Below the pieces are notes generated by a model that was not told the DNA's origin, did no database searches, and saw only the letters and a program-made list of their open reading frames with translations. Shown piece by piece: positions 6,023-54,480 of a stretch of DNA of 64,000 nt (the stretch's first letter is position 1; the number at the start of each line of letters is the position of its first letter). Source of the stretch: Polyangiales bacterium. Its GTDB lineage: Bacteria > Myxococcota_A > Polyangia > Polyangiales > Ga0077539. Position numbers and translations under genes: made by a program. Where the stretch lies: assembly GCA_046351555.1 (NCBI GenBank), contig JAXLYI010000006.1, positions 186,284 to 250,283 of the forward strand, given 5' to 3'.

Positions 6023-6144
6023 GACGGCGTTTGTACCACGGGCGTCGCCCTCGCTGTTGCGGAGCGCGCCCGAAGCCGGTTGATGGGGTGAGGACGTCGG
6101 CGCTCCCATCCGCAGACCTCGGCGACGGATGGGCAGGTGCGATC

Positions 6145-6620: not shown

Positions 6621-6790
6621 GCGGCGACGCGCGGGCTGACGCAGCGATCCGCCACGGTCTGTCTCCCCGAACCGAAGGTGACCGTCACGTCAGCGTCGTG
6701 AGAGGCGGATCGGCCGAAGACGGATCCGACTCCTGCAACGGCGCGGGCGGGCGTTGGAGGCCCGCGGCCTCATGCAGTACAACCCCGTCG

Positions 6791-7594
6791 ATGCAACCGA
6801 CAGCCGCGGCACAGACGCCCCGTGCCCTCCGCGCCGGTCGCGCGCGCCGCACGTACGCGCCCGCCGTCGTCCCGCTGATGCTCGCGGCGTCGCTGCTCGC
6901 GCTCCCGGTCTCGCTCCCGGCCCAGGAGCTCGCCCCCGAGGCGCCGCGGCGGCGGACCCGGTTCGGCGCGTGGCCCGTGCTCCCGTTGGGCCACGCGTGC
7001 CCGTCGAGCGCTGACGCTCTGCCCGCGCAGGGCAACTTCCTGAGCATCCGGAAGTTCTCCCCCGTCGACGCGCTCCAGGGGTGCAGCGCCCGGTGGAACG
7101 ACGGGCTCCACCGGCAGTTCTTCCGCGGGAGCCCGCCGAGCCGGCGCGGCGTCGAGTGCCTCGGCACCACGTTCGGGGTCAACCACATGATCGACCTGCG
7201 GCGCCCCGACGAGATCCTGTCGGACTCGCGGTTCGGGGGGTTCCGCTCCGAGGAGGAGGCCCTCGCCGACTTCAACCAGCGCCACCCGGAGCGCCCCATG
7301 CGCTACTTCAACGTTCGAACCACGCGCGAGACGCCCGACGAGAACCAGCGGCAGATCGAGAACGTCGTGCGCTACGTGCAGCAGTCGCTGCGCGAGGACC
7401 CGACCGCGGTCTTCTACCTCCACTGCCGCGCGGGCCGCGACCGGACGGGCGTGATGGTCGCGGCCATCGAGTCGCTCGTGGGCGGGTGCCCGTGGCCCCA
7501 GGTGCGGAGCCGGCTCTTCTCGTTCCGCTTCTCCCGGAGCTACGCCCGCCCGCTGCTTGGCCCGCTCCAGCGCGCCATCGGGGTGGAGCCGTAG
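6791..7594 (+). CDS. Secreted protein-tyrosine/dual-specificity phosphatase (CX5R)
   Basis: Signal peptide (AVVPLMLAASLLALPVSLPAQE). The catalytic P-loop YLHCRAGRDRTGVMVA matches the HCX5R(S/T) PTP signature. Confidence 0.7.
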   Translation: MQPTAAAQTPRALRAGRARRTYAPAVVPLMLAASLLALPVSLPAQELAPEAPRRRTRFGAWPVLPLGHACPSSADALPAQGNFLSIRKFSPVDALQGCSARWNDGLHRQFFRGSPPSRRGVECLGTTFGVNHMIDLRRPDEILSDSRFGGFRSEEEALADFNQRHPERPMRYFNVRTTRETPDENQRQIENVVRYVQQSLREDPTAVFYLHCRAGRDRTGVMVAAIESLVGGCPWPQVRSRLFSFRFSRSYARPLLGPLQRAIGVEP

Positions 7595-7632
7595 CGCCGG
7601 GCGGTTTGCGTGTAGGCTCCGTCGCCAAGCAA

Positions 7633-8027
7633 TGGAGCCCGCCGATTCGTCCCGCGTCTTCCGCGTGCAGATCTACTACGAGGACACCGACCACTCGGGC
7701 CTCGTCTACCACGCCAACTACCTGAAGTACTTCGAACGGGCGCGCGAGCACCTGCTCGGCGTCGACGAGCTCGTGCGGCTCTACCGCGAGGAGTCGCTCG
7801 GCTTCGTCGTGTACAAGTGCGAGCTCACCTTCCGCGAAGGCGCGGTGTTCGGCGACACGCTGGAGGTGCGGACGACGCCGCGCCTGGAGAGCGAGTACCG
7901 CGTGGCCTTCCAGCAGGACGTCTACCGCGGCGACAAGCTCCTCGTGCAGGGCCAGGTGCAGATGGTGTGCGTCGACGGTCGCCGCCAGCTCGTGAAGCTG
8001 CCGCCCTCGGTCACCGCGCGGCTGTAG
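7633..8027 (+). CDS. ybgC: Acyl-CoA thioesterase, YbgC/4HBT family
   Basis: MEPADSSRVFRVQIYYEDTDHSGLVYHANYLKYFERARE... is the hotdog-fold YbgC signature. It is followed by a TonB-like gene. Confidence 0.8.
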
Positions 8028-8073
8028 CGCGGACGGCGCGCCCTCCCGGCCCGATGTAGCATCCAACGTCCTC

Positions 8074-9255
8074 ATGAGCGCCGTGACGCAACGCCCCCGC
8101 TGGTTTGCCGCGTCGTTCGCGGCGCACGGGGCCGTCCTCGCGCTCCTCACGCTCCTGCCGCGCCCGGCGGAGCGCCCCGCCGCGCTCGTCCCGCTCGCGC
8201 CCGCGGAGCTCGCCTTCGCGCCGCTCGCCGCCCCAGAGCCCCCGCCACCGCCTCCACCGCCCGCGGCCGCGACCGAGCCCCCGCCGCCTCCGCAACCCCG
8301 CGCCCCGCCGCCGCGCGTCGTCGCCCGCCCTGCGCCCGCGCAACCTGCTCCTGCGCCCGCGCCAGCGCCCGCGCCCGCGCTCCCGCCGCCGCCCGCGCCG
8401 CCTGCCCTGCGCGCCGCGGACGTGCTTCGAACCAGCGCCGCGCTCGCCCCGTCGCTCGCGCTCGCCGCGCCCGCGCCCGACACGCGCGTGGGCCCCGCGC
8501 GCGCCGACCTCTTCGGGGGCGCGGGCGACGCGCCGCAAGGTGAGCTCGCGCGCCTCCGCGCCGCCACGCAGGGCTACGTCGGCGAGGCCCTCGCGTCGTC
8601 CACCGCCCGCGAGGCCCCCGGCGTCCGCTCGTACCTCTGGAACGTCCGCCGCCGCATGACCGAGGCCTGGCGCCCGGGCGTCGTGCGCGTGCCCAACCTC
8701 GGCGAGACGCTCCTCGCGGGCTTCATCCCGCCCGAGCGCGCGATGCGCATCCTCGGCGAGCGCTTCATGCGGCGGCAGCGCCAGCAGCTCGAGCCCACCG
8801 CGCGCGCCGCCGGCGCCGTCGACGCGATCGAGTCCATCGGCGGCATCGCCGGCAACGGACCGAGCGGCCGCCAGAACGTCCCTATCGACGCGGGCCAGGA
8901 GTCGTGGCGCCGCAACGTTCGAACGACCCGCGCCGAGGTGCAGGTCGACCAGGACCCCGCCGGGCACATCCTCGACGTGCGCGTGCTCCACTCGTCGGGG
9001 ATGACCACCTTCGACCAGGCCGCGATGGACGCCGTGCGCAACGGGCTCGCCGAAGAAGACCCCGTCCCCCTCCCCGGCGGCCGACGCTCGCGCTGGAGCT
9101 TCACCGTCGTCGCCACCCGCCGGCTCCTCACCCTCAGCGTGGGCGGCACCTTCGACGAGTCGCGCGGGTGGTTCTCCGTCCAGCTCCCCGGCCAGGTGAG
9201 CATCCGAACCCGCGTCCAGATGGAGTCCTCGGCCGCCCTCCCCGCCGGCGGGTGA
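8074..9255 (+). CDS. TonB-family protein (Pro-rich spacer plus TonB C-terminal domain)
   Basis: N-terminal TM helix, a long Pro/Ala-rich region, and C-terminal ...VQVDQDPAGHILDVRVLHSSGMTTFDQAAMDAVRN... typical of the TonB_C domain. Confidence 0.7.
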   Translation: MSAVTQRPRWFAASFAAHGAVLALLTLLPRPAERPAALVPLAPAELAFAPLAAPEPPPPPPPPAAATEPPPPPQPRAPPPRVVARPAPAQPAPAPAPAPAPALPPPPAPPALRAADVLRTSAALAPSLALAAPAPDTRVGPARADLFGGAGDAPQGELARLRAATQGYVGEALASSTAREAPGVRSYLWNVRRRMTEAWRPGVVRVPNLGETLLAGFIPPERAMRILGERFMRRQRQQLEPTARAAGAVDAIESIGGIAGNGPSGRQNVPIDAGQESWRRNVRTTRAEVQVDQDPAGHILDVRVLHSSGMTTFDQAAMDAVRNGLAEEDPVPLPGGRRSRWSFTVVATRRLLTLSVGGTFDESRGWFSVQLPGQVSIRTRVQMESSAALPAGG

Positions 9256-9366
9256 GCTGTTCCATTTCGTGACAGACGCCACAGGCGTGACACCCGGCGC
9301 AGCCCGCGCTCACGCTGTCTTTCAGCCATTTCGCGCGGCACGGGGCGTGTAGACAGCCTCGGTCGG

Positions 9367-11067
9367 ATGCGCCCCTCGCCCCGCCACCCGACGGCCGTTG
9401 TCGCGAACCGCCCTCCTGGCCGACAGTGGCACGGCATGGACCTCCCCTCCCCGCCCGCGCCCTCGACCACGCTCCGGCGCTACCAGCGGCTCGCCGAGGA
9501 GGGTGACGCCCACCTCGCCGCCGTCCTCCGCCTCGCCGCCAACGCCCTCGGCGCCCCGCACGCGCTCCTCGCCCGGCTCGACGGCCGCCGCCGCGCCTTC
9601 GACGCCGTCGTCGGCATGGAGCGCCGCGCGGCCGCGGCGTTCGTCCCGCTCTGCAACTACGCGCTGCTGCACCCCGAGGGCTTCGCCGTCGCCGACGCGC
9701 GCACCAGCGAGGCGCTCGCGGGCTTCCCCGCGGTCGCGTCGGGCGCCGTTCGCATGGTCGCGGGGGGCGCGCTGCGCGACGCGCGCGGCGAGCTCGAGGG
9801 GGCCTTCGTGGTGTTCGACCCGTCGCCCCGCGCGCTCACCGCCGCGCAGCGCGAGGGCGTCGCCGCCGCCGCCGAGGCGCTCGCCCGCCACCTCGCCCAC
9901 GCCCGCGAGCTCGACGCCGTCCGCGCGCGCCACGCCGACCACCTGCGCGACCTCGACGTGCTCCGCGGCGTCTTCCGCGGCGCGCGCCGGCTCGCGGTGG
10001 TGACCGCGGGCCCCGACGGCCGCGTCACCGCGCTCAACGAGGGCGCCGCCGCGCTGCTCGGCCGGCCGGTCGCGCCCGCGGGCCTCGCGCTGGAGAGCCT
10101 CTTCGACCGCGACGAGTGCGCGCGCGTCGCCGCCGGCCTCGGGCTCCCCGACACGCCCGTGGGCCGCGGCGAGGCCCTGCGACGTCTCGCCGCCGAGGGC
10201 GACGGCGACAGCCGCGACTGGACGTGGCGCCGCGCCGACGGGGGCCCCGCGCCCGTCCACGCCACCCTCCACGCCGCGCGCGACGAGGACGGCGCGCTCG
10301 CGGGCTACGTCGCCGTCGCGCAGGACATCACCGAGCGCCTCGCCGTCGCGCGGCTGAAGGACGAGTTCATCGCCGCGGTGAGCCACGAGCTCCGCACGCC
10401 GCTCACGTCGATCCGCGGCGCGGTGGGCCTCCTCGCGGGCGGCGTCGCCGGGCCCCTCGCGCCCGACGCCGCCGAGCTCGTCTCCCTCGCCGCCGAGCAG
10501 TGCGGCCAGCTCGAGCGCCTCGTCGACGACCTGCTCGACCTCGCCCGCCTCCGCGCCGGGCGCGTCGAGCTCCGCCGCGTCGAGCGCGCCGTCGGCCCCA
10601 TCGTGCAGCACGCCGTCGCGCTCCACGGGCCCTACGCCGCCACGCTCGACGTGACCCTCGCCGTCGCCGATGACCCCGCCACCCGCGCCGCCGCCGGCGC
10701 GCGCGTCTCCGTCGACCCCGACCGCGTGGTGCAGGTGCTCGCCAACCTGCTCTCCAACGCGGCGAAGTTCTCGCCCCCCGGCGGCGTCGTCACCGTGCGG
10801 ATGCGCCGCGCCGGCGCCTCGGTGCGCGTGCTCGTCGAGGACCGCGGCCCCGGCGTGCCCGAGGCCCTGCGCCCCCACGTGTTCGAACGCTTCATGCGGG
10901 CCGACCCGCCGGGCGTCGACGGCGCCCGCGCGCGCGGCACGGGCCTCGGCCTCGGCATCGCGAAGGGGCTCGTCGAGCGCCACGGCGGCGCCATCGGGTT
11001 CGAAACCGAGGCCGGCCGCGGCAGCACCTTCTGGTTCGACCTGCCCACCGTCGGGGGCGCGCCGTGA
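9367..11067 (+). CDS. Sensor histidine kinase (GAF/PAS plus HisKA plus HATPase)
   Basis: H-box FIAAVSHELRTPLTSI and G-boxes DRGPGVP / GTGLGLGIAKGLVERHGG. An alternative ATG start at 9436 (MDLPSP...) is possible. Confidence 0.85.
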   Translation: MRPSPRHPTAVVANRPPGRQWHGMDLPSPPAPSTTLRRYQRLAEEGDAHLAAVLRLAANALGAPHALLARLDGRRRAFDAVVGMERRAAAAFVPLCNYALLHPEGFAVADARTSEALAGFPAVASGAVRMVAGGALRDARGELEGAFVVFDPSPRALTAAQREGVAAAAEALARHLAHARELDAVRARHADHLRDLDVLRGVFRGARRLAVVTAGPDGRVTALNEGAAALLGRPVAPAGLALESLFDRDECARVAAGLGLPDTPVGRGEALRRLAAEGDGDSRDWTWRRADGGPAPVHATLHAARDEDGALAGYVAVAQDITERLAVARLKDEFIAAVSHELRTPLTSIRGAVGLLAGGVAGPLAPDAAELVSLAAEQCGQLERLVDDLLDLARLRAGRVELRRVERAVGPIVQHAVALHGPYAATLDVTLAVADDPATRAAAGARVSVDPDRVVQVLANLLSNAAKFSPPGGVVTVRMRRAGASVRVLVEDRGPGVPEALRPHVFERFMRADPPGVDGARARGTGLGLGIAKGLVERHGGAIGFETEAGRGSTFWFDLPTVGGAP

Positions 11068-12467
11068 GCCCCTCGCGCGAGCCCCCGCGCGCCGTCGCCG
11101 TCGTCGAGGACGACCGCGACACCCGCAAGCTCCTCGGGCTCTGGGTGCGCGCCGAGGGGCACGACCTCGCCGACTTCGCCGACGCCCGCGCCGCCCTCGC
11201 CGCCGACGTCGCCCGCCTCGGCGCCGTCTGCCTCGACCTCCACCTCCCCGGCGCCTCGGGGATGGACGTGCTCCGCGCCCTCCGCGAGCGCGACCCCGAC
11301 CTCCCCGTCATCGTCGTCACCGCCGAGCGCGCCGTCGACGCCGCGGTGGAGGCGATGCGCGCCGGCGCCTACGACTACCTCGTCAAGCCCGTCGACCGCG
11401 CGCGCCTCGCCCAGTCGCTCCGCCGCGCCCTCGAGAAGCGCTCGCTCGCCGAGAAGGTGCGCGCGCTCAGCGCCCGCGCCGACGCGCCGCCGCCCCCCGG
11501 CGCCCTCGTCGGGTCGAGCGCCCCCATGCGCGAGGTGCAGCGCCGCATCGAGCGCGTGCTCGACAGCGACGTCACCGTCTGCGTCTACGGCGAGAGCGGC
11601 ACCGGCAAGGAGCTCGTCGCCCGCGCCGTCCACGACCGCGGCCGGCGCAAGGCGGGGCCCTTCGTCGCGATCAACTGCGCGGCCATCCCCACCGCGCTCC
11701 AGGAGAGCGAGCTCTTCGGGCACGAGAAGGGGGCCTTCACCGGCGCCCTCGCCGCGCGCGAGGGGCGCTTCGAAGAGGCCCGCGGCGGCACCCTCTTCCT
11801 CGACGAGATCGGCGAGATGAGCGCCGCCACCCAGGCCTCGCTCCTGCGCGCGCTCCAGGAGCGCACCGTGCGGCGCCTCGGCGGGCGCGAGGAGATCCCC
11901 GTCGACGCGCGGATCGTCTGCGCCACCCACCGCGACCTCGAGGAGGAGGTGCGCGCCGGGCGCTTCCGCCAGGACCTCTACTACCGCCTCGTCGTCTACC
12001 CCATCCGCGTGCCGCCGCTGCGCGACCGCCGCGACGACCTCGCCGCCCTCGCCGCCCACTTCCTCCGCAAGCTCCGCGCGGACGTCGGGCGCGACGTGCT
12101 GCGCGTCAGCCCCGAGGCCCTCGCCGCCCTCGCCGCCTACCCGTGGCCCGGCAACGTCCGCGAGCTCGAGAACGCCCTCCACTGCGCCATGCTCGCGGCG
12201 CGCGACGGCGTGGTCGACCTGCGCGACCTGCCGCCCGCCGTCCGCGGCGCCCGCGCGCCCGGCCCGCAGCCCTCAGCCCCGCCCGACGTCGCGCCCGAGG
12301 AGTCCGACGAGGCCGGCGTCCTCCCGCTCTACGAGGTCGAGCGCCGCGCGATCGTCCGCGCGCTCCGCGCCTCGCAGGGGGGCGTGTCGCGCGCGGCCAA
12401 GCTCCTCGGCATCAGCCGCACCACCCTCTACCGCAAGCTCGCCGAGTACGGGCTGGAGGCGGGGTGA
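11064..12467 (+). CDS. Sigma-54-dependent response regulator (NtrC family: REC, AAA+, Fis HTH)
   Basis: REC (CLDLHLPG), Walker A GESGTGKE, GAFTGA motif, C-terminal HTH LLGISRTTLYRKL. The GTG start overlaps the histidine kinase stop (GTGA). Confidence 0.9.
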   Translation: MSPSREPPRAVAVVEDDRDTRKLLGLWVRAEGHDLADFADARAALAADVARLGAVCLDLHLPGASGMDVLRALRERDPDLPVIVVTAERAVDAAVEAMRAGAYDYLVKPVDRARLAQSLRRALEKRSLAEKVRALSARADAPPPPGALVGSSAPMREVQRRIERVLDSDVTVCVYGESGTGKELVARAVHDRGRRKAGPFVAINCAAIPTALQESELFGHEKGAFTGALAAREGRFEEARGGTLFLDEIGEMSAATQASLLRALQERTVRRLGGREEIPVDARIVCATHRDLEEEVRAGRFRQDLYYRLVVYPIRVPPLRDRRDDLAALAAHFLRKLRADVGRDVLRVSPEALAALAAYPWPGNVRELENALHCAMLAARDGVVDLRDLPPAVRGARAPGPQPSAPPDVAPEESDEAGVLPLYEVERRAIVRALRASQGGVSRAAKLLGISRTTLYRKLAEYGLEAG

Positions 12468-12471
12468 CGCC

Positions 12472-12855
12472 GTGGAGATCCGCACCGTCCTCGTCGCCGA
12501 CGACGACCCGGCCGTGCGCCGGATCGCGGAGCTGAGCCTCGCGCGCGTTGGGGGCTTCCGCGTCGTGCTCGCCGCCACCGGCCCCGAGGCGCTCGACGTC
12601 GCCGCCCGCGAGCGCCCCGACGTCATCGTGCTCGACGTGATGATGGGCGCGATGGACGGCGTCGCCACCCTCGCCGCCCTCCGCGCGCGCGAGGCCACCC
12701 GCGGCACCCCCGTGGTCTTCATGACCGCCCGCGCCCTCGACGAGGAGGCCGCGCGCCTCGTCGGCGTCGGCGCCGCGGGCGTCATCCGCAAGCCCTTCGA
12801 CCCGATGAAGCTCCCCGCCGAGCTCCGCCGCCTCGCCGCCGGGGGCGCGCCGTGA
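12472..12855 (+). CDS. Single-domain response regulator (CheY-like receiver)
   Basis: VLVADDDPAVRR...VIVLDVMMGAMDG...IRKPF receiver motifs. GTG start 5 nt after the upstream stop. Confidence 0.8.
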   Translation: MEIRTVLVADDDPAVRRIAELSLARVGGFRVVLAATGPEALDVAARERPDVIVLDVMMGAMDGVATLAALRAREATRGTPVVFMTARALDEEAARLVGVGAAGVIRKPFDPMKLPAELRRLAAGGAP

Positions 12856-13115
12856 GCGGCGACGTCGAGGCCCTCATCGCCGAGGCGGTGGAGGAGTTCC
12901 GCGCCGCGCTGCCCGCGCGCGCCGCCCGCGTCGCCGCGCTCGCCGCCGCGGGCGACGCCGCGGGCGTAGAGGCCGAGGCCCACGCCCTCGCCGGCGCCGC
13001 CGGGTGCTACGGCTTCGACGCCGTCGGCGAGGCCGCGCGCGCCGTCGAGCGAAGCGGCGCCGCGCACGTCCCCGCGCTCCTCGCCGCCGCGGAGGCCGCG
13101 TGCCGCCCGCGCTGA
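12852..13115 (+). CDS. Hpt (histidine phosphotransfer) domain protein
   Basis: AHALAGAAGCYGF matches the Hpt consensus (compare CheA P1 AHSIKGGAGTFGF). Overlaps the CheY stop (GTGA). Confidence 0.6.
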   Translation: MSGDVEALIAEAVEEFRAALPARAARVAALAAAGDAAGVEAEAHALAGAAGCYGFDAVGEAARAVERSGAAHVPALLAAAEAACRPR

Positions 13116-14371
13116 CCCCGAGCGACCCCTACCGCCTCGTCGGCCGCACCGTCGCGGGCCGCTACGCCGTGGGCGCCGTCCACCGCCGCACGCGCCTCGC
13201 CGTCGTCTACCGCGCGCAGCACGTCGAGCTCCGGTCGGGCGTCGCGCTGAAGGTGCTCCACCTGCCCGCGTGGGCCGCGGAGCCGCACCGTGAGCGCTTC
13301 CTCGCGCGCTTCGCGCAGGAGGCCCGCACCGTCGCCGCGCTCAACCACCCCGCGATGGCCCGCGTGCTCGACTACGGCGAGCTCGCCCTCGACGTCGGCG
13401 CCACGCCCTGGATGGCGATCGAGTGGCTCGACGGCCGCACGCTCGCCGACGACCTCGCCGCGCGCCCCGGCGGCCGCCGCTCGCCGCGCGAGGCCCTCGC
13501 GCTCCTCGGCCCCGCGCTCGACGCGATCGCCTGCGCCCACGAGGCCGGCGTCGCCCACCGCGACGTGAAGCCCGCCAACCTCCTGCTCGTCCCCGCCCGC
13601 CGCGGCGAGTCCTCGCTCCGCGTCATCGACTTCGGCATCGCCAAGGTGATGGAGCCCGAGGAGTCCGCCGACCAGGAGCACACCGCCACCCGCGCCGCCA
13701 TCGCCGCCTTCTCGCCCCTCTACGCCGCGCCCGAGCAGGTGGCCGGCTCGCGCACCGGCCCCTGGACGGACGTGCACGCGCTCGGGCTCATCCTCACGGA
13801 GCTGCTCACCGGCGCCAGCGCCTACCGCGCCGACGACGAGCGCGCGCTCTTCGCCGAGGTGCTCGACGCCGCGCGCCCCACGCCCGGCCGCGCCGGCGTC
13901 GACGTCGGCCCCTGGGAGGCCGTCCTCGCCCGCGCCCTCCACGCGCGCGGCGCCGAGCGCCACGCCGACGCGGGCGCGCTCCGGGCCGCGCTCGAGCGCT
14001 CGGTCGACGCCGCGCAGGCCGCGTGGGAGGCGCCCCTCGCGCGCAACGCCCTCGCCGACACCCGCGTCGCCGTCGGCGAGCTCCACCCCGCCCCGTCGCG
14101 CGACGACGCGCCCCGCGCCGCGCGCCGCGCGTGGGTGGCCGCCGCCGTCGCCGGCGCCCTCGCCGCGTGCGCCGCGCTCCTCTGGGCGTCGCGCCGCGCG
14201 CCCGAGCCCGCCGCGCCCGACGGGCCCGTGCCGGTGACGCCCGTCCCCGCGCCCGCCCCGGTGGCTGAGGCGCCGCCGACCTTCGCCGCGCCCGCGCGAC
14301 CGCCGTCAACGCCGCGCCGCGCCGCGCCCGCGCGCCCGCGCGCCGCCGCGCGCCCCATCGTCATCGAGTAG
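13100..14371 (+). CDS. Ser/Thr protein kinase, membrane-anchored (paralog A)
   Basis: Hanks motifs VALKVL, HRDVKPANLL, DFGIAK, APE. C-terminal TM and Pro-rich tail ending ...RPIVIE. The GTG start overlaps the Hpt gene. Confidence 0.85.
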   Translation: MPPALTPSDPYRLVGRTVAGRYAVGAVHRRTRLAVVYRAQHVELRSGVALKVLHLPAWAAEPHRERFLARFAQEARTVAALNHPAMARVLDYGELALDVGATPWMAIEWLDGRTLADDLAARPGGRRSPREALALLGPALDAIACAHEAGVAHRDVKPANLLLVPARRGESSLRVIDFGIAKVMEPEESADQEHTATRAAIAAFSPLYAAPEQVAGSRTGPWTDVHALGLILTELLTGASAYRADDERALFAEVLDAARPTPGRAGVDVGPWEAVLARALHARGAERHADAGALRAALERSVDAAQAAWEAPLARNALADTRVAVGELHPAPSRDDAPRAARRAWVAAAVAGALAACAALLWASRRAPEPAAPDGPVPVTPVPAPAPVAEAPPTFAAPARPPSTPRRAAPARPRAAARPIVIE

Positions 14372-14379
14372 AGGCCCGC

Positions 14380-15531
14380 ATGAACCTCACGCCCGGAACC
14401 GCCCTCCGCCAACGCTACGCCCCCATCGCCCCCGCCGACGACCGCGGCGCCGGCGAGGCGTGGCGCGCCCTCGACCTCGCCCGAGGTCAGCGCGAGGTGA
14501 CGCTCTCGCTCTACGGCCCCGGCAGCGCCGCGGCGGCCGCGCGCCTCGACGCGGCGGCGCGCGCGGCCGCGCACCCGTCGCTCGCCCGACCGCTCGACGT
14601 CGGCGCCGAGGGCGGCCGGGCCTTCGCGGCGTACGAGCCCTTCGCGGGGGCCTCGCTCGGCGCTCACCTCGACGCGGCGAGGGCCCGCGGCGAGCCCCCG
14701 CCGCTCGCGTGGGTGCGCGCGGTGTTCGACGCCGCGTCCGCGGCGGTGGAGGCGCTCCACGCGGCGGGCGTCGCGCACGGCGCGCTCTCGCCGGCGTCGG
14801 TGCTCGTCGGCGGCGCGGCCTTCGCGGTGTGCGTGGTCGACGCGGGGCTCGGATGCTTCGCGCGCGCCGCGGCGACGCCGGGTGCCGCCCGCGCGTCCGC
14901 CTGCGCCGCGCCCGAGCTCGCCGCGGGCGCCGAGCCCGACGCGGCGTCGGACGTGTATGCGCTCGGGGCGCTGCTGCGCGAGGCGCTCGACGGGCGCGCC
15001 GACGTCGCCGACGCCGTGGGGGAGGCGGCCGCCCTCGCGACCGCGCACGACCCGGCGGGGCGCTTCGGCTCCGTGGCCGCGCTGCGCGCCGCGCTCGCGG
15101 GCGAGTGGGAGCTCGGCGACGCGCTCGAGAGCCCCACGGTGATGTCGCCCGCGCCGACCGAGTCGCCCCCCGCAGCGCGCCGACACGGCGGCACCGCGCT
15201 CGCGGAGGACGTCGGCATCGGCGAGTCGCGCGGCGCGGCCTTCGCGGGCACGATGATCGCCGACGTCGACCAGCGCCTCGCGCGCGTCCGCCCGATCGAC
15301 GCGCCGCTCGACGCCGGCGACTTCGCGCGCGAGCTCCCGTCCGCCGCGGCGACGCCGTCGCTCCCGCCGCCCGCGCCGCGCGCGCCGACGCCCGCCCCGC
15401 CGCCGCCCGCGCCGCCCGCGGTGAGCGACGACCGCGGCCGCGCCGTGGCGGTCGCCGCGATCGCGATCATCGCGCTCGCGGGCGCCGCGATGATCGCGTG
15501 GGCGCTGCTCCACGGGGGGCGCGCGTCGTGA
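14380..15531 (+). CDS. Pseudokinase (degenerate kinase fold, C-terminal TM)
   Basis: Kinase-like topology, but the catalytic loop reads AHGALSPASVLV instead of HRDLKPxN. No VAIK lysine or DFG is evident. Starts 8 nt after kinase A. Confidence 0.6.
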   Translation: MNLTPGTALRQRYAPIAPADDRGAGEAWRALDLARGQREVTLSLYGPGSAAAAARLDAAARAAAHPSLARPLDVGAEGGRAFAAYEPFAGASLGAHLDAARARGEPPPLAWVRAVFDAASAAVEALHAAGVAHGALSPASVLVGGAAFAVCVVDAGLGCFARAAATPGAARASACAAPELAAGAEPDAASDVYALGALLREALDGRADVADAVGEAAALATAHDPAGRFGSVAALRAALAGEWELGDALESPTVMSPAPTESPPAARRHGGTALAEDVGIGESRGAAFAGTMIADVDQRLARVRPIDAPLDAGDFARELPSAAATPSLPPPAPRAPTPAPPPPAPPAVSDDRGRAVAVAAIAIIALAGAAMIAWALLHGGRAS

Positions 15532-15603
15532 GCGACCGCGCGCACCCGTTCCGTTTCGCGACACCCGTGACAGTTCCGGTGAATTGCGTCTGAGACGACC
15601 GCC

Positions 15604-17277
15604 GTGATACCCCCCAAACACACCCCCGCCATGATGCTCCTGCGGACGATCGGCGCGCGCTCGGCGCGCGAGGGGCGAGCGCCCGCCGCCCTCGCGCTCG
15701 CGCTGCTCGGCTGCGCCCGCGACGACTGGCATTTCATCGCGCGCGACGCCGCCGCCGTCACGGTCGACGTCGGCGCGGACGTCACCGCCGACGTCGCCGT
15801 CGGTTCAGACGTCACGGACGCGTCTGACGTCGCCGCCGTCACCGACGTCAGGGACGTCACCGACGCGCCCGACGTCACGGTCGCCGCGGACGTCGCCGAC
15901 GCGGCCGCCGACCGGCCCGCCGACGCGCCGCTCGACCTCTCCTGCCGCGAGGGCTCGACCTTGTGCCGCGACGAGTGCGTCGACACGTCGTCCTCGACGG
16001 TCCACTGCGGCGGGTGCAACCAGCTCTGCGGGTTCGGCCAGACGTGCACCGCCGGCCGCTGCCGCGGCGAGGCGCCCGGCACCTGCGCGGACTCGCCCTG
16101 CGGCGGCGTCTGCACCACCGGGCGCTGCACGCCGCCCGACGCGATCGCGGTCGGCGGCGCGCACGCCTGCGCCCGCCTCATCGACGGCTCGATGCGCTGC
16201 TGGGGCGGCAACGGCGCGGGGCAGCTCGGGCGCGGCACGGAGACGCCGTCCGAGCCGGCGCCCGCCTTCGTCGTGAGCCCCGCCACCACCGCCGCCCCGC
16301 TCGCCGACGTTCAGACCTTGTCCGCCGGGGCATCGCACACCTGCGCGGCGGTCGACCAGGGCACCACCGCCGGCCTCAGCAACGTGCGCTGCTGGGGCGC
16401 CAACGCCCTGCGGCAGCTCGCGCAGCCCGCCGGCCTCGCGCTCTCCGCGCGCCCCGCCGCCGTGACGGAGGTCGTCGGCGCTTCGATGCTCGCGGCGGGC
16501 GGCGACCACACCTGCGCGCTCACCGCCATGGGCTCGATGACCACGCTGCTCTGCTGGGGCAACAACGCCGACGGGCAGGCCGGCGTCGGCGTGCCGTCGG
16601 CGTTCGTCCCCTCGCCCATGCCGGTGTCGACCGCGATGCTCCCGTCGACGCGGCCCACCTTCCTCGGCGTCGCCGCGGGCGCCGAACACACCTGCGCGTG
16701 GTCGGACTCCGGCGTCTACTGCTGGGGGCGCAACAACCACGGCGCCCTCGGGCGCTCGACCACCATGGTGGTCAACGGCAACGCCGCGCCGGCCCCCGTG
16801 CCCGACGCCCTCGGCACGATCACGAAGGTCGTCGCCGGCGAGGGCTTCACCTGCGCCCTCACGCGGGGCGGGCGCACCGCCCTCAACGTCTGGTGCTGGG
16901 GCTACGGCGAGAGCGGGCGGACGGGCCTCGGCGACGCCGCCGACGCGCTGTCGCCCCGCGCGGTGATGCTCAGCGGCGCGGCGGTCGACCTCGCCGCGGG
17001 CCGCGCCCACGCCTGCGCGCTCCTCGCCACGGGCCAGGCGCTCTGCTGGGGGAGCAACGCCCGCGGCCAGCTCGGTTCCGCCGTCCCCGGCGCCGCCATG
17101 ACCCCCTCGCCGGTCTCCACGACCGTCCCCTTCGCCGCCATCGCCGCCGGCGGCGACACCACCTGCGCGCTCGCGATGGGCTCGGGCGCCGTGTACTGCT
17201 GGGGCGACAACGCCAACGGCCAGCTCGGCGCCGCGGCCCCGCCGACGAGCGCGACGCCGCTGCGGGTGACATTCTGA
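15604..17277 (+). CDS. RCC1-repeat (beta-propeller) lipoprotein with N-terminal DVT-repeat linker and Cys-rich knot
   Basis: Lipobox LALALLGCA. Repeated CWG.N..GQLG / HTCAL RCC1 blades (7 or more). N-terminal (DVTDA)n linker. Confidence 0.8.
   Translation: MIPPKHTPAMMLLRTIGARSAREGRAPAALALALLGCARDDWHFIARDAAAVTVDVGADVTADVAVGSDVTDASDVAAVTDVRDVTDAPDVTVAADVADAAADRPADAPLDLSCREGSTLCRDECVDTSSSTVHCGGCNQLCGFGQTCTAGRCRGEAPGTCADSPCGGVCTTGRCTPPDAIAVGGAHACARLIDGSMRCWGGNGAGQLGRGTETPSEPAPAFVVSPATTAAPLADVQTLSAGASHTCAAVDQGTTAGLSNVRCWGANALRQLAQPAGLALSARPAAVTEVVGASMLAAGGDHTCALTAMGSMTTLLCWGNNADGQAGVGVPSAFVPSPMPVSTAMLPSTRPTFLGVAAGAEHTCAWSDSGVYCWGRNNHGALGRSTTMVVNGNAAPAPVPDALGTITKVVAGEGFTCALTRGGRTALNVWCWGYGESGRTGLGDAADALSPRAVMLSGAAVDLAAGRAHACALLATGQALCWGSNARGQLGSAVPGAAMTPSPVSTTVPFAAIAAGGDTTCALAMGSGAVYCWGDNANGQLGAAAPPTSATPLRVTF
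15750..15910 (+). repeat. In-frame tandem repeat (GACGTCRCN units) encoding a DVT/DVA linker
   Basis: Seen directly. Lies inside the RCC1 gene. Confidence 0.6.
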
Positions 17278-17284
17278 GGGCCCC

Positions 17285-18676
17285 ATGAGTGAAGAAGCAC
17301 AGGACGTCTTCGGCCTCGTCGGGCGCGCGCTCCTCGACAAGTACCTCGTCGACCGCGTCGTCGCGAAGGGCGGCTTCGGCACCGTCTACCAGGGGCGCCA
17401 CCTCGAGCTCCAGACGCCCGTCGCGGTGAAGGTGCTGATGGTGCCCGACCGCTTCCAGGGCGACCTGCGCGAGGAGTTCCTCGAGAAGTTCAGGCTGGAG
17501 GCGCGCACCATCGCGGCGCTCAACCACCCGGCGATCGTGCGGGTGCTCGACTTCGGCACCGCCCTCTTCGCCGCCGGCGCCTCGCCCTGGATGGCGCTCG
17601 AGTGGCTCGAGGGCCACACCCTCGAGAGCGAGCTCGAGGCCCGCCTCGGCCAGCGGGGCCGCTCGCCGCGCGAGGCCCTCGCGCTCCTCCGCCCCGCCTT
17701 CGACGCCCTCGCCTGCGCCCACGAGGTCGGCATCGCGCACCGCGACGTGAAGCCCGCCAACATGATGGTCGTGCGCGCGCGCCGCGGCGAGCCCGGCCTC
17801 CGCATGCTCGACTTCGGCATCGCCAAGGTGATGGAGCCCGAGGAGCAGGCCGGCTCGGGCCACACCTCCACCCAGACCGAGCTCACCGCCTTCTCGCTGC
17901 TCTACGCCGCCCCCGAGCAGATCAGCCGCTCGCGCACCGGCCCCTGGACGGACGTGCACGCGCTCGGGCTCATCCTCACCGAGATCCTCACCGACACCCA
18001 GGCCTACCAGGCCCAGGACACCACGCAGATCTACGCCGAGATCGTCGGCCGCGAGCGCCCCACGCCCGGCCGCGCCGGCGTCGACGTCGGCCCCTGGGAG
18101 GCCGTCCTCGCCCGCGCCCTCTCCCTTCGCCCCGCCGAACGCCACGGCAACGCGGCCGACTTCCTCGCCGCCCTCGAGGCCGCCGTCGACGACGCCGACC
18201 GCGCGTGGCAGGCCGCGCGCTCGCCTTCACTCGCGCCGCACGTCGCCCACGGCGCGCCCGCGCCCGCCGCGCCCAAGCCCGACACGCTCATGGGCGCCAC
18301 CGGTGCGCGCCCCGCGCCGCGCCGCAGCCGCTACCTCCTCCCGCTGAGCGCGCTCGGCGCGCTGGCCCTCTTCGGCGCTGGCCTCTACGCGGTCGCCCGC
18401 ACCACCGCCGCAACCGCCCCCGAGGCCCACCTCGCGCAGCCGCCCGCCCGCCCCGCGCCGCCCGCCGTCGCACCGCAGGCGCCCGCGACGCAGGTGCGCG
18501 CGCCGCAACCGCCCGCGCCGCAACCGCCCGCGCCGCAAGCGCCCGCCGCAGCACCCGACGCCGGCACGCCCGCCGTCGCCGCAGCCGCCCCCGACGACGG
18601 CCGCCCCCGACGCCACCGACGCCACGCGCCCGCCGAAGGCGGCCGCGCCCCGGGCGGCGGCATCGTCATCGAGTAG
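17285..18676 (+). CDS. Ser/Thr protein kinase, membrane-anchored (paralog B)
   Basis: Hanks motifs (GGFGTVYQG, VAVKVL, HRDVKPANMM, DFGIAK). Shares 48- and 60-nt near-identical nucleotide blocks with kinase A and the same ...IVIE C-terminus. Confidence 0.85.
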   Translation: MSEEAQDVFGLVGRALLDKYLVDRVVAKGGFGTVYQGRHLELQTPVAVKVLMVPDRFQGDLREEFLEKFRLEARTIAALNHPAIVRVLDFGTALFAAGASPWMALEWLEGHTLESELEARLGQRGRSPREALALLRPAFDALACAHEVGIAHRDVKPANMMVVRARRGEPGLRMLDFGIAKVMEPEEQAGSGHTSTQTELTAFSLLYAAPEQISRSRTGPWTDVHALGLILTEILTDTQAYQAQDTTQIYAEIVGRERPTPGRAGVDVGPWEAVLARALSLRPAERHGNAADFLAALEAAVDDADRAWQAARSPSLAPHVAHGAPAPAAPKPDTLMGATGARPAPRRSRYLLPLSALGALALFGAGLYAVARTTAATAPEAHLAQPPARPAPPAVAPQAPATQVRAPQPPAPQPPAPQAPAAAPDAGTPAVAAAAPDDGRPRRHRRHAPAEGGRAPGGGIVIE

Positions 18677-18691
18677 CCCCGCGAGACCCCA

Positions 18692-19728
18692 TGCAACGCG
18701 CCGCACGCACCTGGATCTTCACCGCCGCCGGCCTCCTCACCGGCGCCACCGCCGCCGCGCAGGACGGCCCCGAGGAGGTCGCTCGCCGCGACCTGATCCG
18801 CCAGGCCGAGCGCGCCTCGCGCCACCGCCACCACGAGGAGGCCGTCGAGCTCGCGACCCGCGCCAACCAGATCCGCTCGACGCCATCGATCCAGTACTTC
18901 CTCGCGAGCGAGCACCAGACGCTCGGCCACGCGGTGGAGGCGCTCGGCTTCGCGGGCGCGTGCGTGCGGGCCGCCGAGGCCGACACGAGCCTGCGCAACC
19001 GCGAGGCGATCCTCCGCGCGTGCCGCGAGATCGAGTCCGCCGAGGAGCCCCGCGTCGGCCGCGTCACCGTGCGCGCGCCGCAGCCCCCGCCCCCGGGCCT
19101 CGCGGTCCGCGTCAACGGCGCGCCGATCGCCGCCGCGCTCGTCGGCGTGCCCTACCCCGTCGCGCCCGGCGCCGTGCGCGTGCAGGCCACCGCCGAGGGC
19201 TTCACGTCCTTCGAAGGCGCCGCGCAGGTCAGCGCGGGTCAGACCAGCACCGTCGAGATCACCCTGGCGCCCATCGCCGCGCCACCGCCTCCGCCACCAC
19301 CACCACCACCGCCTCCGCCCCCGCCGCCTCCGCCGCGAGACGCGCTCCCCCCGCCGCCGCCGCCGCCGCCACCTGCCCCGAGCGGACCCGGCGTGGGCCC
19401 CTGGATCGTCGTCGGCGCAGGTGCCGCGAGCCTCGCGCTGGCGGGCGTGTTCTACGGCCTCGCCTCGGGCGCGCGCAGCGACCGCGACGCGGCCTGCAAC
19501 GCCGGCGGCTGCGACCCGATCGCGCAGTCACACGACGGTCGTTACGCCGACCTCCTCACCGCCACCAACGCGGCCCTCGGCGTCGGCGCGGCCGCCGTGG
19601 TGGGCGGCGCCGCGTGGTACCTCGTCGCGCGCCTCACGCAGTCGTCCGGCGCCGCGCGCACCTCGCTCCGCCTCGACGTGAGCCCGCGCGCCGGCGGCCT
19701 CTCGCTCGGCCTCGGCGGCCGTTTCTGA
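18692..19728 (+). CDS. PEGA-domain protein with an 18-residue poly-proline run and C-terminal TM
   Basis: Signal peptide. The PEGA-like segment GLAVRVNGAPIAAALVGVPYPVAPGAVRVQATAEGFTSFEGAAQV. P18 then P11 runs (nt 19279-19381). C-terminal TM helix. Confidence 0.6.
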
Positions 19729-19742
19729 GCGGCCCGCGCGGG

Positions 19743-21152
19743 CTACGCCAGCCCGTGCTCCTCGAGCTTGTTGTAGAGCGTGCGGCGGCTCACGCCGAGC
19801 AGCCGCGCCGCGAGCGTGCGGTTGTTCGCCGCGCGCTGGAGCGCCGTCAGCAGCGCCTCGCGCTCGGCCTCGCGACGTCGCCCGTCGAGCGTCTGCGCCC
19901 CGTCGCCCCCCGCCGGCGGAGGAACACTCGGCGCGCCGTGCGGCGGCGTCACGCTCGGCCCCACGCGCGCGCCCTCAACGCCCGGCCCCCGCGCGAGCTC
20001 GCGCGCGACGTCCGCGCCGGTGATCAGGTCGTTGGGCGCGAGCACCACGAGGCGCTCGATGAAGTTCTGGAGCTGGCGGACGTTGCCCGGCCACGGGTGG
20101 GCCTGGAGCGCGGCCACCGCGTCGGGGGCCAGCGCCGCGTGGGGCCGCCCGTTGGCCGCGCCGTGCACCGCGCAGAAGTGGGCCGCGAGCGGCGCGACGT
20201 CCGCGGGCCGCGTGCGCAGCGGCGGCATCCACACGGGCACGACGTTGAGCCGGTAGAAGAGGTCCTCACGGAAGGTGCCCTGCGCGACGAGCTCCTCCAG
20301 GTTGCGGTGCGTCGCGGCCACGAAGCGCACGTCGATCTTCTGCGGCCGCGTGCCGCCGAGGCGCTCGACCGTCTTCTCCTGGAGCACCCGCAGGAGCTTC
20401 ACCTGCGTCGCCGGCGTGACGTCGCCCACCTCGTCGAGGAAGAGCGTGCCCCCGTGGGCCAGCTCGACGCGGCCCGGCTTCGACACGTTGGCCCCGGTGA
20501 AGGCCCCGCGCTCGTACCCGAAGAGCTCGCTCTCGAGAAGGTTGTCTGGGAGCGCCGCGCAGTGGAGCGCCACGAAGGGCCCCGCTCGCCGCGGCGACCC
20601 CTCGTGGATCGCCCGCGCCGCCAGCTCCTTGCCCGTCCCCGACTCGCCGCGGATGAGCACCGTGGCCGTCCCCTGCGCCGCCCGCGCCAGCAGCGCGTGG
20701 ACCTCGCGCATCGCGTCGGACGTCCCCACGAACGACCCCGGCGCGGCGGGCGCGGCCGGCGGGCGCTCGGCGGCGGCGCGCCCCGAGGCCAGCGCCTTCT
20801 GCACCGCGAAGAGCACCTCGTCGCGGTCGCAGGGCTTCAGCACGAAGTCGCTCGCGCCGAGCTTCATCGCCTCCACCGCGAGCGCGACCGTCCCCTGCCC
20901 GCTCATCATCACCACGGGCAGGTCGGGCCACTGCGCCCGCACCCGCTGGAGCAGCGCCATCCCGTCCATCTCGCCCATGTAGAGGTCGGTGACGAGCGCG
21001 TCGTGCGGCCGGCGCGCCAGGGCCTCCAGCGCCGCGGGCCCCGAGGAGACGTACTCCGACTCGACGCCCGCCTGCTTGAGGAGCGCCTGGAGGATGCGGC
21101 CCACGGAGGGCTCGTCGTCGACGATCAGCACGGAAGCTGCGGGGTGTGGCAT
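19743..21152 (-). CDS. Sigma-54-dependent response regulator (NtrC family)
   Basis: REC (LVTDLYMGEMDG), GESGTGKE, GAFTGA, HTH LLGVSRRTLYNKL. Confidence 0.9.
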   Translation of the reverse strand: MPHPAASVLIVDDEPSVGRILQALLKQAGVESEYVSSGPAALEALARRPHDALVTDLYMGEMDGMALLQRVRAQWPDLPVVMMSGQGTVALAVEAMKLGASDFVLKPCDRDEVLFAVQKALASGRAAAERPPAAPAAPGSFVGTSDAMREVHALLARAAQGTATVLIRGESGTGKELAARAIHEGSPRRAGPFVALHCAALPDNLLESELFGYERGAFTGANVSKPGRVELAHGGTLFLDEVGDVTPATQVKLLRVLQEKTVERLGGTRPQKIDVRFVAATHRNLEELVAQGTFREDLFYRLNVVPVWMPPLRTRPADVAPLAAHFCAVHGAANGRPHAALAPDAVAALQAHPWPGNVRQLQNFIERLVVLAPNDLITGADVARELARGPGVEGARVGPSVTPPHGAPSVPPPAGGDGAQTLDGRRREAEREALLTALQRAANNRTLAARLLGVSRRTLYNKLEEHGLA

Positions 21153-21226
21153 CGCGGGCGCGAGGATACCCGAAAGCCCCCCGCCGCCATCCCCCCACGG
21201 CGAACGCGCCGCGGCGCCGACGCCCG

Positions 21227-21256
21227 TTGACGCCGGCGCCCCCGCCGCGGTGCAAT
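21227..21256 (+). promoter_or_regulatory. Candidate sigma-70-type promoter (TTGACG-N18-TGCAAT) upstream of 21263
   Basis: Hexamers read by eye. Only 4/6 match in the -10 box. No experimental support. Confidence 0.2.
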
Positions 21257-21262
21257 CCGCGC

Positions 21263-28485: not shown

Positions 28486-30252
<1,767 letters not shown>

Positions 30253-30628
30253 GCGTTCACCTCTCGGTAGATCCCTTGCGCTTGCCCTCAGTGAAACGGC
30301 ATCCGCCCCGAGAACTCAAGCCCCGAATGCCGCGCTTCAGACACCGGCCCATGTGCGAACGGTGGGGTCATGTACGGGCGCCGACCAGTCGGAGGCGCCG
30401 CGCGGGGGAAGGTGCGGCAGCGGCCGGCCGGGCGCGGCGCGCAGCTCCGCTGGACAAGGTCACCCCCGGATCGTACCCTGCGTGGCCTGTTTCGGGTGGC
30501 GCCGCCTCCGCACGGACGCGTCCCCGCGCTGCCCTCCCCACGCCCTCCCCCAACACCCGCCACCACGCGCACCCATCCCCCCCGCCGCATCGGCGGTCGC
30601 GGCCGGCGCCACCACCCATGGACGTCCC

Positions 30629-43309: not shown

Positions 43310-44596
<1,287 letters not shown>

Positions 44597-44685
44597 CGCC
44601 TCGTGGCGGGCACTCTACCACCGGCGCGGGAAGAATTGACGCGCAACGTCGCCGGCGGGGCGCGCCGGCGACGTTGCACAAGGTT

Positions 44686-52328: not shown

Positions 52329-54452
<2,124 letters not shown>

Positions 54453-54480
54453 GTTATCAGGGCGAAGGGGGCGCGGGCAA

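Follow-up and report, generated by a model that had tools for sequence, protein, structure and literature searches.

How did the parts of a histidine-aspartate (His-Asp) phosphorelay come to be packed into one run of genes with Hanks-type Ser/Thr kinases, and could the two kinds of signalling protein act together? The question is raised by a gene cluster in a 64,000-nucleotide (nt) stretch of contig JAXLYI010000006.1 (the whole analyzed stretch is hereafter the window), which comes from an uncultured freshwater myxobacterium of the Polyangiales. An earlier note on this DNA had proposed that six genes at positions 9367-15531 form a translationally coupled operon, in which a multi-step relay into an NtrC-type activator is linked genetically to a Ser/Thr kinase and a pseudokinase. 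After analyzing the locus together with its relatives, we assign a probability of about 50% to the following interpretation: the genes form a lineage-specific composite signalling cluster, in which an envelope kinase module is joined to a His-Asp module. We infer co-transcription of the genes, the direction of signalling and every phosphotransfer step.

The G+C content of the window is 71-81%, and because such high G+C yields many spurious open reading frames (ORFs), frames were chosen by the G+C content of third codon positions (GC3). Domains were assigned using Pfam with gathering scores and NCBIfam with equivalog cut-offs (reached by none of the proteins), and the gaps between genes were scanned using Rfam. 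Relatives were also sought by scanning species-representative genomes with a kinase alignment followed by tblastn mapping. The fetched loci, denoted below by L numbers, amount to ~1.2-1.26 Mb. An independent gene call, made by others, was available for contig L085, which is near-identical to the window. The window pseudokinase is identical to an NCBI protein with locus tag U0324_10915 (metagenome-assembled genome, MAG: Polyangiales bacterium).

All six genes lie on the + strand in the frames that had been proposed for them, with GC3 values of 0.96-0.99, and Pfam confirmed the domain types:

9367-11067, + strand: cytoplasmic GAF-PAS-HisKA-HATPase histidine kinase, HK (Pfam PAS, HisKA 4.8e-19, HATPase_c 1.6e-27)
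11064-12467, + strand: NtrC-type sigma-54 activator with REC-AAA+-HTH_8 architecture (Pfam Response_reg, Sigma54_activat 6e-70, HTH_8)
12472-12855, + strand: single-domain receiver of 127 amino acids (aa) (Pfam Response_reg 3.5e-25; DD/D/T/K residues present, D55)
12852-13115, + strand: minimal stand-alone histidine phosphotransferase, Hpt, of 87 aa (Pfam PF01627, 33.5 bits against a gathering score of 24.6; His44)
13100-14371, + strand: STK1, a membrane-anchored Hanks-type kinase without the glycine-rich loop (Pfam Pkinase 1.4e-26)
14380-15531, + strand: tail-anchored pseudokinase of 383 aa (Pfam Pkinase 23.4 bits, below the gathering score of 31.7)

The junctions between these genes, read from the sequence in gene order, are -4, +4, -4, -16 and +8 nt:

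11064-11067: HK/activator, GTGA overlap
12468-12471: activator/receiver, 4-nt gap
12852-12855: receiver/Hpt, GTGA overlap
13100-13115: Hpt/STK1, 16-nt overlap
14372-14379: STK1/pseudokinase, 8-nt gap

Thus, three of the five junctions have overlapping start and stop codons, and no gap exceeds 8 nt. The two GTGA overlaps, the 16-nt overlap and the 8-nt gap agree with the previous description, whereas the gap between the activator and the CheY-like receiver is 4 nt and not 5 nt. Identical junctions were obtained in the independent gene call of L085, and in orthologs diverged at synonymous distances (dS) of ~0.4-0.6 the junctions stay tight, with 4-nt overlaps and gaps of 3-9 nt. A scan of positions 7500-21500 detected a single terminator-like hairpin, located on the opposite strand within the RCC1 gene that follows the pseudokinase, and a sigma-70 promoter scan returned no promoter-like site. 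With overlapping ends, no + strand terminator-like site within the run and conservation in orthologs, the proposed tight packing of the six genes holds: they share one strand, their start and stop codons nearly abut and no terminator interrupts them, as is characteristic of operons.

The conserved unit proved to be larger than the six-gene run. In related genomes the order of the six genes is preserved together with four further genes, so that the block comprises ten genes at positions 8074-19728. The additional members are the following:

8074-9255, + strand: protein of 393 aa with a TonB_2 C-terminal domain (Pfam TonB_2 6.4e-9, NCBIfam tonB_Cterm)
15604-17277, + strand: lipoprotein combining a Cys-rich region (Stig1/MXAN_6577-like) with a beta-propeller of RCC1 repeats (WD40_RLD 2e-63, RCC1, Stig1)
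17285-18676, + strand: STK2, a canonical paralog of STK1 with a membrane anchor (Pfam Pkinase 9e-33; GGFGTVY, VAVK, HRD, DFG)
18691-19728, + strand: P343, an exported 343-aa protein with a helical N-domain and a beta domain resembling PEGA/CarboxypepD_reg; it also has a poly-Pro stretch and hydrophobic segments

The order in orthologs is TonB_2 protein, HK, activator, receiver, Hpt, STK1, pseudokinase, RCC1 lipoprotein, STK2 and the 343-aa envelope protein. Orthologous contigs with protein identities of 57-86% (57% for the pseudokinase) preserve both this order and the overlaps at the junctions, and the dN/dS ratio is below 1 for all block genes. The TonB_2 gene is conserved upstream of the HK gene in L007 and in a 28-kb contig; farther upstream, conservation ceases. 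Genes beyond both ends of the block in the relatives have no counterpart in the window. Since the flanking genes differ while the ten genes stay, the ten genes travel as a block. The most conserved member is the lone receiver (83% identity between orthologs, dN/dS 0.04-0.24) and the fastest-evolving one is the RCC1 lipoprotein (44% identity), which has a lipobox (LLGC) and matches the NCBIfam model C_rich_MXAN6577. P343, which has a weak Pfam match, is 81% identical in L004. A second REC-sigma-54-HTH_8 activator (19743-21152, - strand), which lies next to the block in the window in convergent orientation and without an adjacent kinase, is not conserved at this position in L004 or L005.

Only two gaps within the block are of promoter size, namely those between the TonB_2 and HK genes (111-180 nt) and between the pseudokinase and RCC1 genes (72 nt). 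In the proposed arrangement, the six genes from HK to the pseudokinase would be expressed as one translationally coupled message, and the RCC1 gene, STK2 and P343 would constitute a second unit. Both gaps contain a 16-nt motif with consensus GTTCC[AG]TTTCG[TC]GACA followed by 9-nt-phased GTGACA-like repeats, and the first gap contains a further conserved element:

9259-9274, + strand: cis motif copy 1, GTTCCATTTCGTGACA, then 9-nt-phased G[TC]GACA repeats to 9295
15548-15563, + strand: cis motif copy 2, GTTCCGTTTCGCGACA, then GAATTGCGTCTGAGAC just before the RCC1 start; the motif plus repeats extend to 15575
9333-9348, + strand: CGGCACG-N4-GTGTAG, identical in L007, resembling a sigma-54 -24 element with a non-consensus -12

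These two are the only copies of the motif in the 64-kb window, even when three mismatches are allowed. At one mismatch, the 1.26 Mb of fetched sequence contains 12 matches, all of them in this clade, in the same two gaps and on the coding strand (in relatives at positions 6127 and 12521 of L007, 3499 of L001, 5394 of L004 and 1224 of L084). The CGGCACG-N4-GTGTAG element, ~60 nt downstream of motif copy 1, deviates from TGGCAC-N5-TTGC at three positions, and the second gap has a conserved GAATTGCGTC[TA]GAGAC. Two sigma-54-like matches within the gaps are on the wrong strand and coincide with the GTGACA repeats. Neither gap folds better than shuffled sequences or matches an Rfam family, so the motif is probably a DNA element. 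By eye, comparison with ECF-type, sigma-70-type and NifA-type (TGT-N10-ACA) sites gave no convincing assignment. We read this pattern as two putatively co-regulated transcription units flanked by a shared motif.

The His-Asp parts appear to be complete. As had been noted, the histidine kinase is not a hybrid: its 566-aa product has no Response_reg match in Pfam. Its N-terminal GAF domain matches PDB entry 4zmu (E 1.6e-8), the protein has no transmembrane or hydrophobic segment, and its catalytic boxes are intact (H-box SHELRTPL, NLLSNAAKF, DRGPGV, FERF and GTGLGLGI). The true start is likely ATG 9436, giving 543 aa, rather than 9367, in view of the GC3 of 0.83 in 9367-9435 compared to 0.98 thereafter, the gene call in L085 and the length of orthologs. 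The NtrC-type sigma-54 enhancer-binding protein was likewise correctly recognized, having the Pfam domains and the GAFTGA motif as well as Walker A (GESGTGKE) and Walker B (LFLDEIGE) motifs and a receiver with the DD/D/T/K set and phospho-acceptor D58. The two receivers of the block differ strongly, with 32% identity over 69 residues.

For the Hpt candidate, presence of the conserved His was decisive for the original proposal. This residue, H44 in EAHALAGAAGCYGFD, does not vary among the four sequences compared, and the orthologs are also annotated as Hpt. The motif around it is HALAG compared to H-x-x-K-G, the Lys being replaced by Ala. The AlphaFold model (pLDDT 93) is a four-helix bundle with helices at 2-33, 36-52, 56-68 and 70-84 and the His in the second helix. 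The top Foldseek matches in PDB are Hpt domains, namely Shewanella 3myf (TM 0.72-0.75), ArcB, ShpA (2ooc), HptB and BarA. The E-values of these matches are weak (0.3-1), a common outcome for a helical protein of 87 residues. Comparison with PDB sequences gave only marginal matches (ArcB, E 0.44), and a homolog search and a hidden Markov model scan of the 1.2 Mb of fetched loci detected no Hpt homologs outside the clade. With a Pfam score above the gathering score and the predicted fold, the stand-alone Hpt is genuine.

All four phospho-acceptors (the HK His, receiver D55, Hpt H44 and activator D58) are therefore intact, together with the accompanying DD/T/K residues. A four-step relay is plausible because every catalytic residue is present; its order is a prediction. 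The suggested multi-step relay into the NtrC-type activator is thus borne out as far as the required residues are concerned, whereas a split-hybrid test gave it no support. In this test, the fused receivers of 35 hybrid-kinase relatives scored on average 47 bits against the REC domain of the activator and 36 bits against the lone receiver, the lone receiver being the higher-scoring one in 10 of the 35. These scores lend no support to an origin of the lone receiver by splitting of a hybrid kinase. The nearest full-length homologs of HK are orphans, having no activator, receiver or Hpt beside them. Two of these (38% identity; L082 6730-9827 and L083 2894-7088) are divergent to a small Hanks kinase and a V4R/PAS gene and represent a second, different kinase-kinase neighbourhood. 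As a separate detail, the HK/activator (11047-11067) and receiver/Hpt (12835-12855) junctions carry the identical 17-mer GGGGGCGCGCCGTGAGC. The HK and receiver proteins both end in GGAP, and the pseudokinase gene ends with the similar GGGGGGCGCGCGTCGTGAGC. Orthologs retain the 4-nt overlap but not the 17-mer.

The first kinase of the block, STK1, corresponds to the previous Ser/Thr kinase assignment in its Pkinase fold and catalytic residues (VALK, QEAR with the alpha-C Glu, HRDVKPAN, DFG and APE), but it lacks the glycine-rich loop in all orthologs. When aligned to PknB (E 4e-35), STK1 has VHRRTRLAVV in place of LGFGGMSEV, with no glycine in any ortholog. A relative in L009 (56% identity) has lost the DFG Asp as well. 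Judged by these residues, STK1 may be weakly active or inactive. It has a transmembrane segment at 344-364 and a Pro-rich periplasmic tail ending in IVIE-COOH. STK2 is 52-56% identical to STK1 and 85-96% identical among orthologs, and by its motifs it is the sole canonical kinase of the block.

A short C-terminal peptide is shared by the two kinases, both of which end in IVIE-COOH (14360-14371 in STK1, 18665-18676 in STK2). Three hydrophobic residues followed by Glu terminate the kinase in seven of nine complete relatives and also in L086. Variants of this tail in L007, L008, L009, L010, L012, L013, L019 and L086 include IVIE, IIIE, VAIE, LVLE, LVVE and VVME. The peptide looks like a docking peptide, for which P343, the RCC1 propeller and the C-terminal domain of the TonB-like protein are candidate receptors.

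The pseudokinase had been called correctly: it has HGA instead of HRD, SPAS instead of KPxN, DAG instead of DFG and Ser at the position of the beta-3 Lys. The protein aligns to StkP and PknB (E 5e-10), with HGALSPASVLV opposite HRDLKPQNILL of StkP, and has a transmembrane segment at 353-379. Replacement of the HRD Asp by Ala is family-wide, whereas the change of the beta-3 Lys to Ser is confined to this lineage; the Asp of the DFG motif remains. When 1.84 billion representative proteins were searched with a profile, 31 matched at E<=1e-30, and the family amounts to about 30 clusters (at 50% identity) that keep a degenerate catalytic loop without Asp and Asn. In the top ~36 representatives, of 400-600 residues, the first loop is reduced to G-x-G-E-x-W, the beta-3 Lys is kept, the catalytic loop reads H-[GLE]-x-x-x-P-x-[SC] without Asp, Lys and Asn, the DFG Asp is mostly kept and APE is kept. 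Members have a transmembrane helix at the extreme C-terminus. Their sources are metagenomes or MAGs labelled "Deltaproteobacteria bacterium" with no informative names, and no characterized member was found among them. The shared pattern, together with a dN/dS ratio of 0.18-0.56, indicates a conserved pseudokinase family rather than a decaying gene, and on this measure the pseudokinase is maintained by purifying selection.

Outside the clade, the two halves of the block have separate distributions. Several Myxococcota MAGs carry an STK2-like gene followed by a P343-like gene, often with an RCC1-like gene, and lack two-component genes in the vicinity, and a P343-like protein is the usual partner of STK2-like kinases (L008, L010, L012, L013, L016, L018, L019, L086). 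A pair of STK1-like and pseudokinase genes stands alone in L009, between a histidine-phosphatase fragment and a VgrG gene. In L086 (2854-7266) and L087, an ECF sigma gene is followed by a pseudokinase gene (39% identity), an STK2-like gene (64%) and a P343-like gene, with a 4-nt overlap of the pseudokinase and STK2-like genes in L086. Further genes of the pseudokinase family stand alone or close to VgrG. For instance, family members at L009 12977-15139 (- strand) and L089 8471-10797 (- strand) are followed by a convergent VgrG gene, with DUF4280 also present in L089, a neighbourhood reminiscent of the control of type VI secretion by kinases.

The His-Asp genes do not accompany the kinases elsewhere, and the combination is found only in one small Polyangiales clade. 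The claimed genetic link between His-Asp and Hanks-type signalling is thus present in a conserved block, but it is restricted to a narrow clade and does not represent a widespread design. Given that the kinase module is found alone and that the His-Asp genes are confined to this clade, the link is a recent fusion of an older kinase cassette to the relay genes. Gene content across the relatives indicates that the kinase module is older and portable and that the two modules have independent histories.

These observations can be combined into a tentative scheme. The envelope module would consist of the tail-anchored pseudokinase, the membrane Hanks kinases, the exported PEGA-like protein and the RCC1-propeller lipoprotein. 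Within the block, membrane or export features are restricted to the kinases, the pseudokinase, the RCC1 protein, P343 and the TonB-like protein, which makes it likely that the kinase module senses and that the cytoplasmic His-Asp proteins, including the activator, deliver the output. The membrane kinase module would sense an envelope cue, with STK2 as the catalytic kinase and STK1 and the pseudokinase as its partners or scaffolds. The cue would then be passed, by Ser/Thr phosphorylation or by binding, to at least one His-Asp protein. Finally, phosphate would flow either from HK through the receiver and Hpt to the activator, or directly from HK to the activator with a receiver-Hpt branch, and in both cases would set sigma-54-dependent transcription. 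The position of the L086 cassette after an ECF sigma gene suggests that in that genome this sensor module feeds another transcription output.

Several observations weigh against a composite cluster of this kind. The block contains neither an FHA domain nor a Ser/Thr phosphatase, hence no obvious reader or eraser of phospho-Thr. The link occurs in only three closely related lineages, so the conserved order may partly reflect short divergence. Kinase and activator genes abound in this genome (the 64-kb window holds six of the kinase-like type and three for sigma-54 activators), so that such neighbours are expected and adjacency alone is weak evidence. A search of the window for the canonical sigma-54 promoter (TGGCAC-N5-TTGC, up to two mismatches) gave 31 matches versus 46 in shuffled sequences, none of them well placed. 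The window pseudokinase has lost the beta-3 Lys that its relatives kept, and STK1, as discussed above, may be inactive.

Four other explanations can be weighed against the composite cluster, two of which concern the path of the phosphate. A strict linear relay, from HK through the lone receiver and Hpt to the REC domain of the activator, would be a split hybrid relay with the kinases only modulating it; we regard this tentatively as somewhat short of an even chance. It would account for the four intact phospho-acceptors and kinase boxes, for a genuine Hpt and for a lone receiver that, like the Hpt, has little other obvious use. It also agrees with the many hybrid kinases among the close relatives of the HK core and with the divergence of the two receivers, as expected for proteins with different phospho-donors, and it has a precedent in ShkA-ShpA-TacA, where an Hpt feeds a sigma-54 activator (PMC7010744). 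However, the HK and activator genes are adjacent with a GTGA overlap, which normally points to a direct cognate pair, the receivers of hybrid relatives are not closer to the lone receiver, and the nearest full-length HK homologs are orphans without the module. The same GTGA overlap favours a plain pair of HK and activator, in which the receiver and Hpt would serve as a phosphate sink or side branch or would have another partner, e.g., the activator at 19743-21152 or a hybrid kinase elsewhere, and the Hanks kinases would be merely co-expressed. The H-box sequence HELRTP of HK is of the phosphatase type, a second REC-sigma-54 activator does adjoin the block in this genome, and the split-hybrid test gave no support for direct HK-receiver coupling. 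Nevertheless, we consider such a pair doubtful: the second activator is not conserved by the block in L004 and L005, purifying selection acts on both the receiver and the Hpt, whose genes invariably sit between those of the activator and the kinases, and sinks normally require only a receiver and not an Hpt.

The other two explanations dispense with a signalling contact between the modules. The link could be transcriptional only, the activator or another regulator acting on the GTTCCRTTTCGYGACA motif to drive both units, with the kinase module as output. The motif is indeed upstream of both units, conserved and restricted to the clade that bears the two-component genes; the activator is the only DNA-binding protein of the block, and the conserved GGCACG element is located ~60 nt downstream of copy 1. 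We find this reading unlikely, as no canonical -12 element is present, no sigma-54-like promoter precedes the RCC1 unit, the motif has no clear dyad, unlike the usual NtrC-family sites, and the kinases of the first unit would still be co-translated with the relay proteins. It would also be conceivable that the genes have no functional link and are chance neighbours in a kinase-rich genome, kept together by closeness of the lineages. The abundance of kinase-like and activator genes in the window and the occurrence of the full arrangement in only three related lineages are in line with this idea, which is nevertheless improbable considering the overlaps at three of five junctions and gaps of at most 8 nt kept at dS ~0.4-0.6, the replacement of both flanks around an intact block, and the lack of an internal promoter-sized gap or terminator.

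Taking the composite cluster as the preferred interpretation, its parts can be compared with known systems. The Spo0 phosphorelay of Bacillus (KinA, Spo0F, Spo0B, Spo0A) starts from a kinase that is not a hybrid and runs via a lone receiver and a phosphotransferase to a terminal transcription factor, and the gene content of the cluster follows the same relay logic. The differences are that Spo0B is a HisKA-like dimer and not an Hpt, that the Spo0 output does not involve sigma-54, and that the spo0 genes are scattered and have no Hanks kinases as operon mates. The ShkA-ShpA-TacA system of Caulobacter crescentus resembles the cluster in that phosphate reaches a sigma-54-dependent activator by way of a small, stand-alone Hpt (PMC7010744). 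In contrast to ShkA, a c-di-GMP-controlled hybrid kinase with fused receivers, the cluster encodes a receiver-less HK and a separate 127-aa receiver, its genes share one operon with Hanks kinases, and homology is established only at the level of domain families.

Links between Hanks kinases and other regulators have been described in myxobacteria and elsewhere. In the Esp system of Myxococcus xanthus, which also includes EspB, the Hanks kinases PktA5 and PktB8 are thought to be in complex with the histidine kinases EspA and EspC (PMC4320627). Unlike the proteins considered here, the Esp kinases are hybrids, the system has no Hpt or sigma-54 activator, its output is MrpC proteolysis, and the genes are arranged differently. 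Myxobacteria also have the kinase cascade Pkn8-Pkn14-MrpC (PMC6791715, PMC4320627). ECF sigma factors of the ECF43 type are phosphorylated and activated by Hanks kinases in the EcfP/PknT and EcfK/PknS systems (PMC8999054, PMC13147305). As with EcfP/PknT, a membrane Hanks kinase would act here as a sensor for a co-encoded transcription factor, and the L086 cassette even follows an ECF sigma gene; unlike it, the output in the window would be a His-Asp relay with a sigma-54 activator. Among the 99 kinases of M. xanthus, 11 are pseudokinases (PMC6791715). The window pseudokinase is similar to these as a degenerate Hanks-family protein encoded beside active kinases, but it belongs to a distinct tail-anchored family with the loop H-[GLE]-x-x-x-P-x-[SC]. 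Well-studied Myxococcaceae have few Hpt proteins (PMC7694542).

Each component type of the cluster is thus known; what is new is the combination in one coupled operon, together with the kinase without a glycine loop and the unnamed pseudokinase family. It can be speculated, although we rate the whole idea as unlikely, that a portable envelope-sensing cassette plugs into alternative outputs, either an ECF sigma factor or a His-Asp-His-Asp relay with a sigma-54 activator, that Ser/Thr phosphorylation or pseudokinase binding gates the relay, and that the C-terminal peptide docks a periplasmic partner. Cross-talk between Hanks kinases and two-component proteins has been documented case by case, usually for unlinked genes, and the cluster offers a compact natural test bed for joining the two phosphorylation chemistries. 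Its soluble HK and small parts are suited to in vitro work, while the pseudokinase family and the kinase C-terminus of three hydrophobic residues and Glu are leads by themselves. The organism is uncultured and the arrangement is confined to one small clade, which limits this prospect.

Other genes of the window are of interest in the same context. Upstream of the block are a Tyr/dual-specificity phosphatase-like protein (6698-7594, + strand) and a 4HBT thioesterase (7630-8027, + strand), both present in the near-identical L085 but not in more distant relatives. Three more full-length Hanks kinases are encoded at 28486-30315 (- strand), 37695-39218 (+ strand) and 43310-44614 (- strand). An activator with FHA, GAF, sigma-54 and helix-turn-helix domains is found at 52329-54494 (- strand); sigma-54 activators of the FHA type are the classical myxobacterial coupling of Ser/Thr phosphorylation to sigma-54 transcription. 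Finally, an ORF of 1055 aa (30206-33373, + strand), a homolog of a eukaryotic vault component and as such unusual in bacteria, has the major-vault-protein shoulder and vault repeat domains; it is immediately followed by a gene for a VWA-domain protein (33374-34528, + strand).

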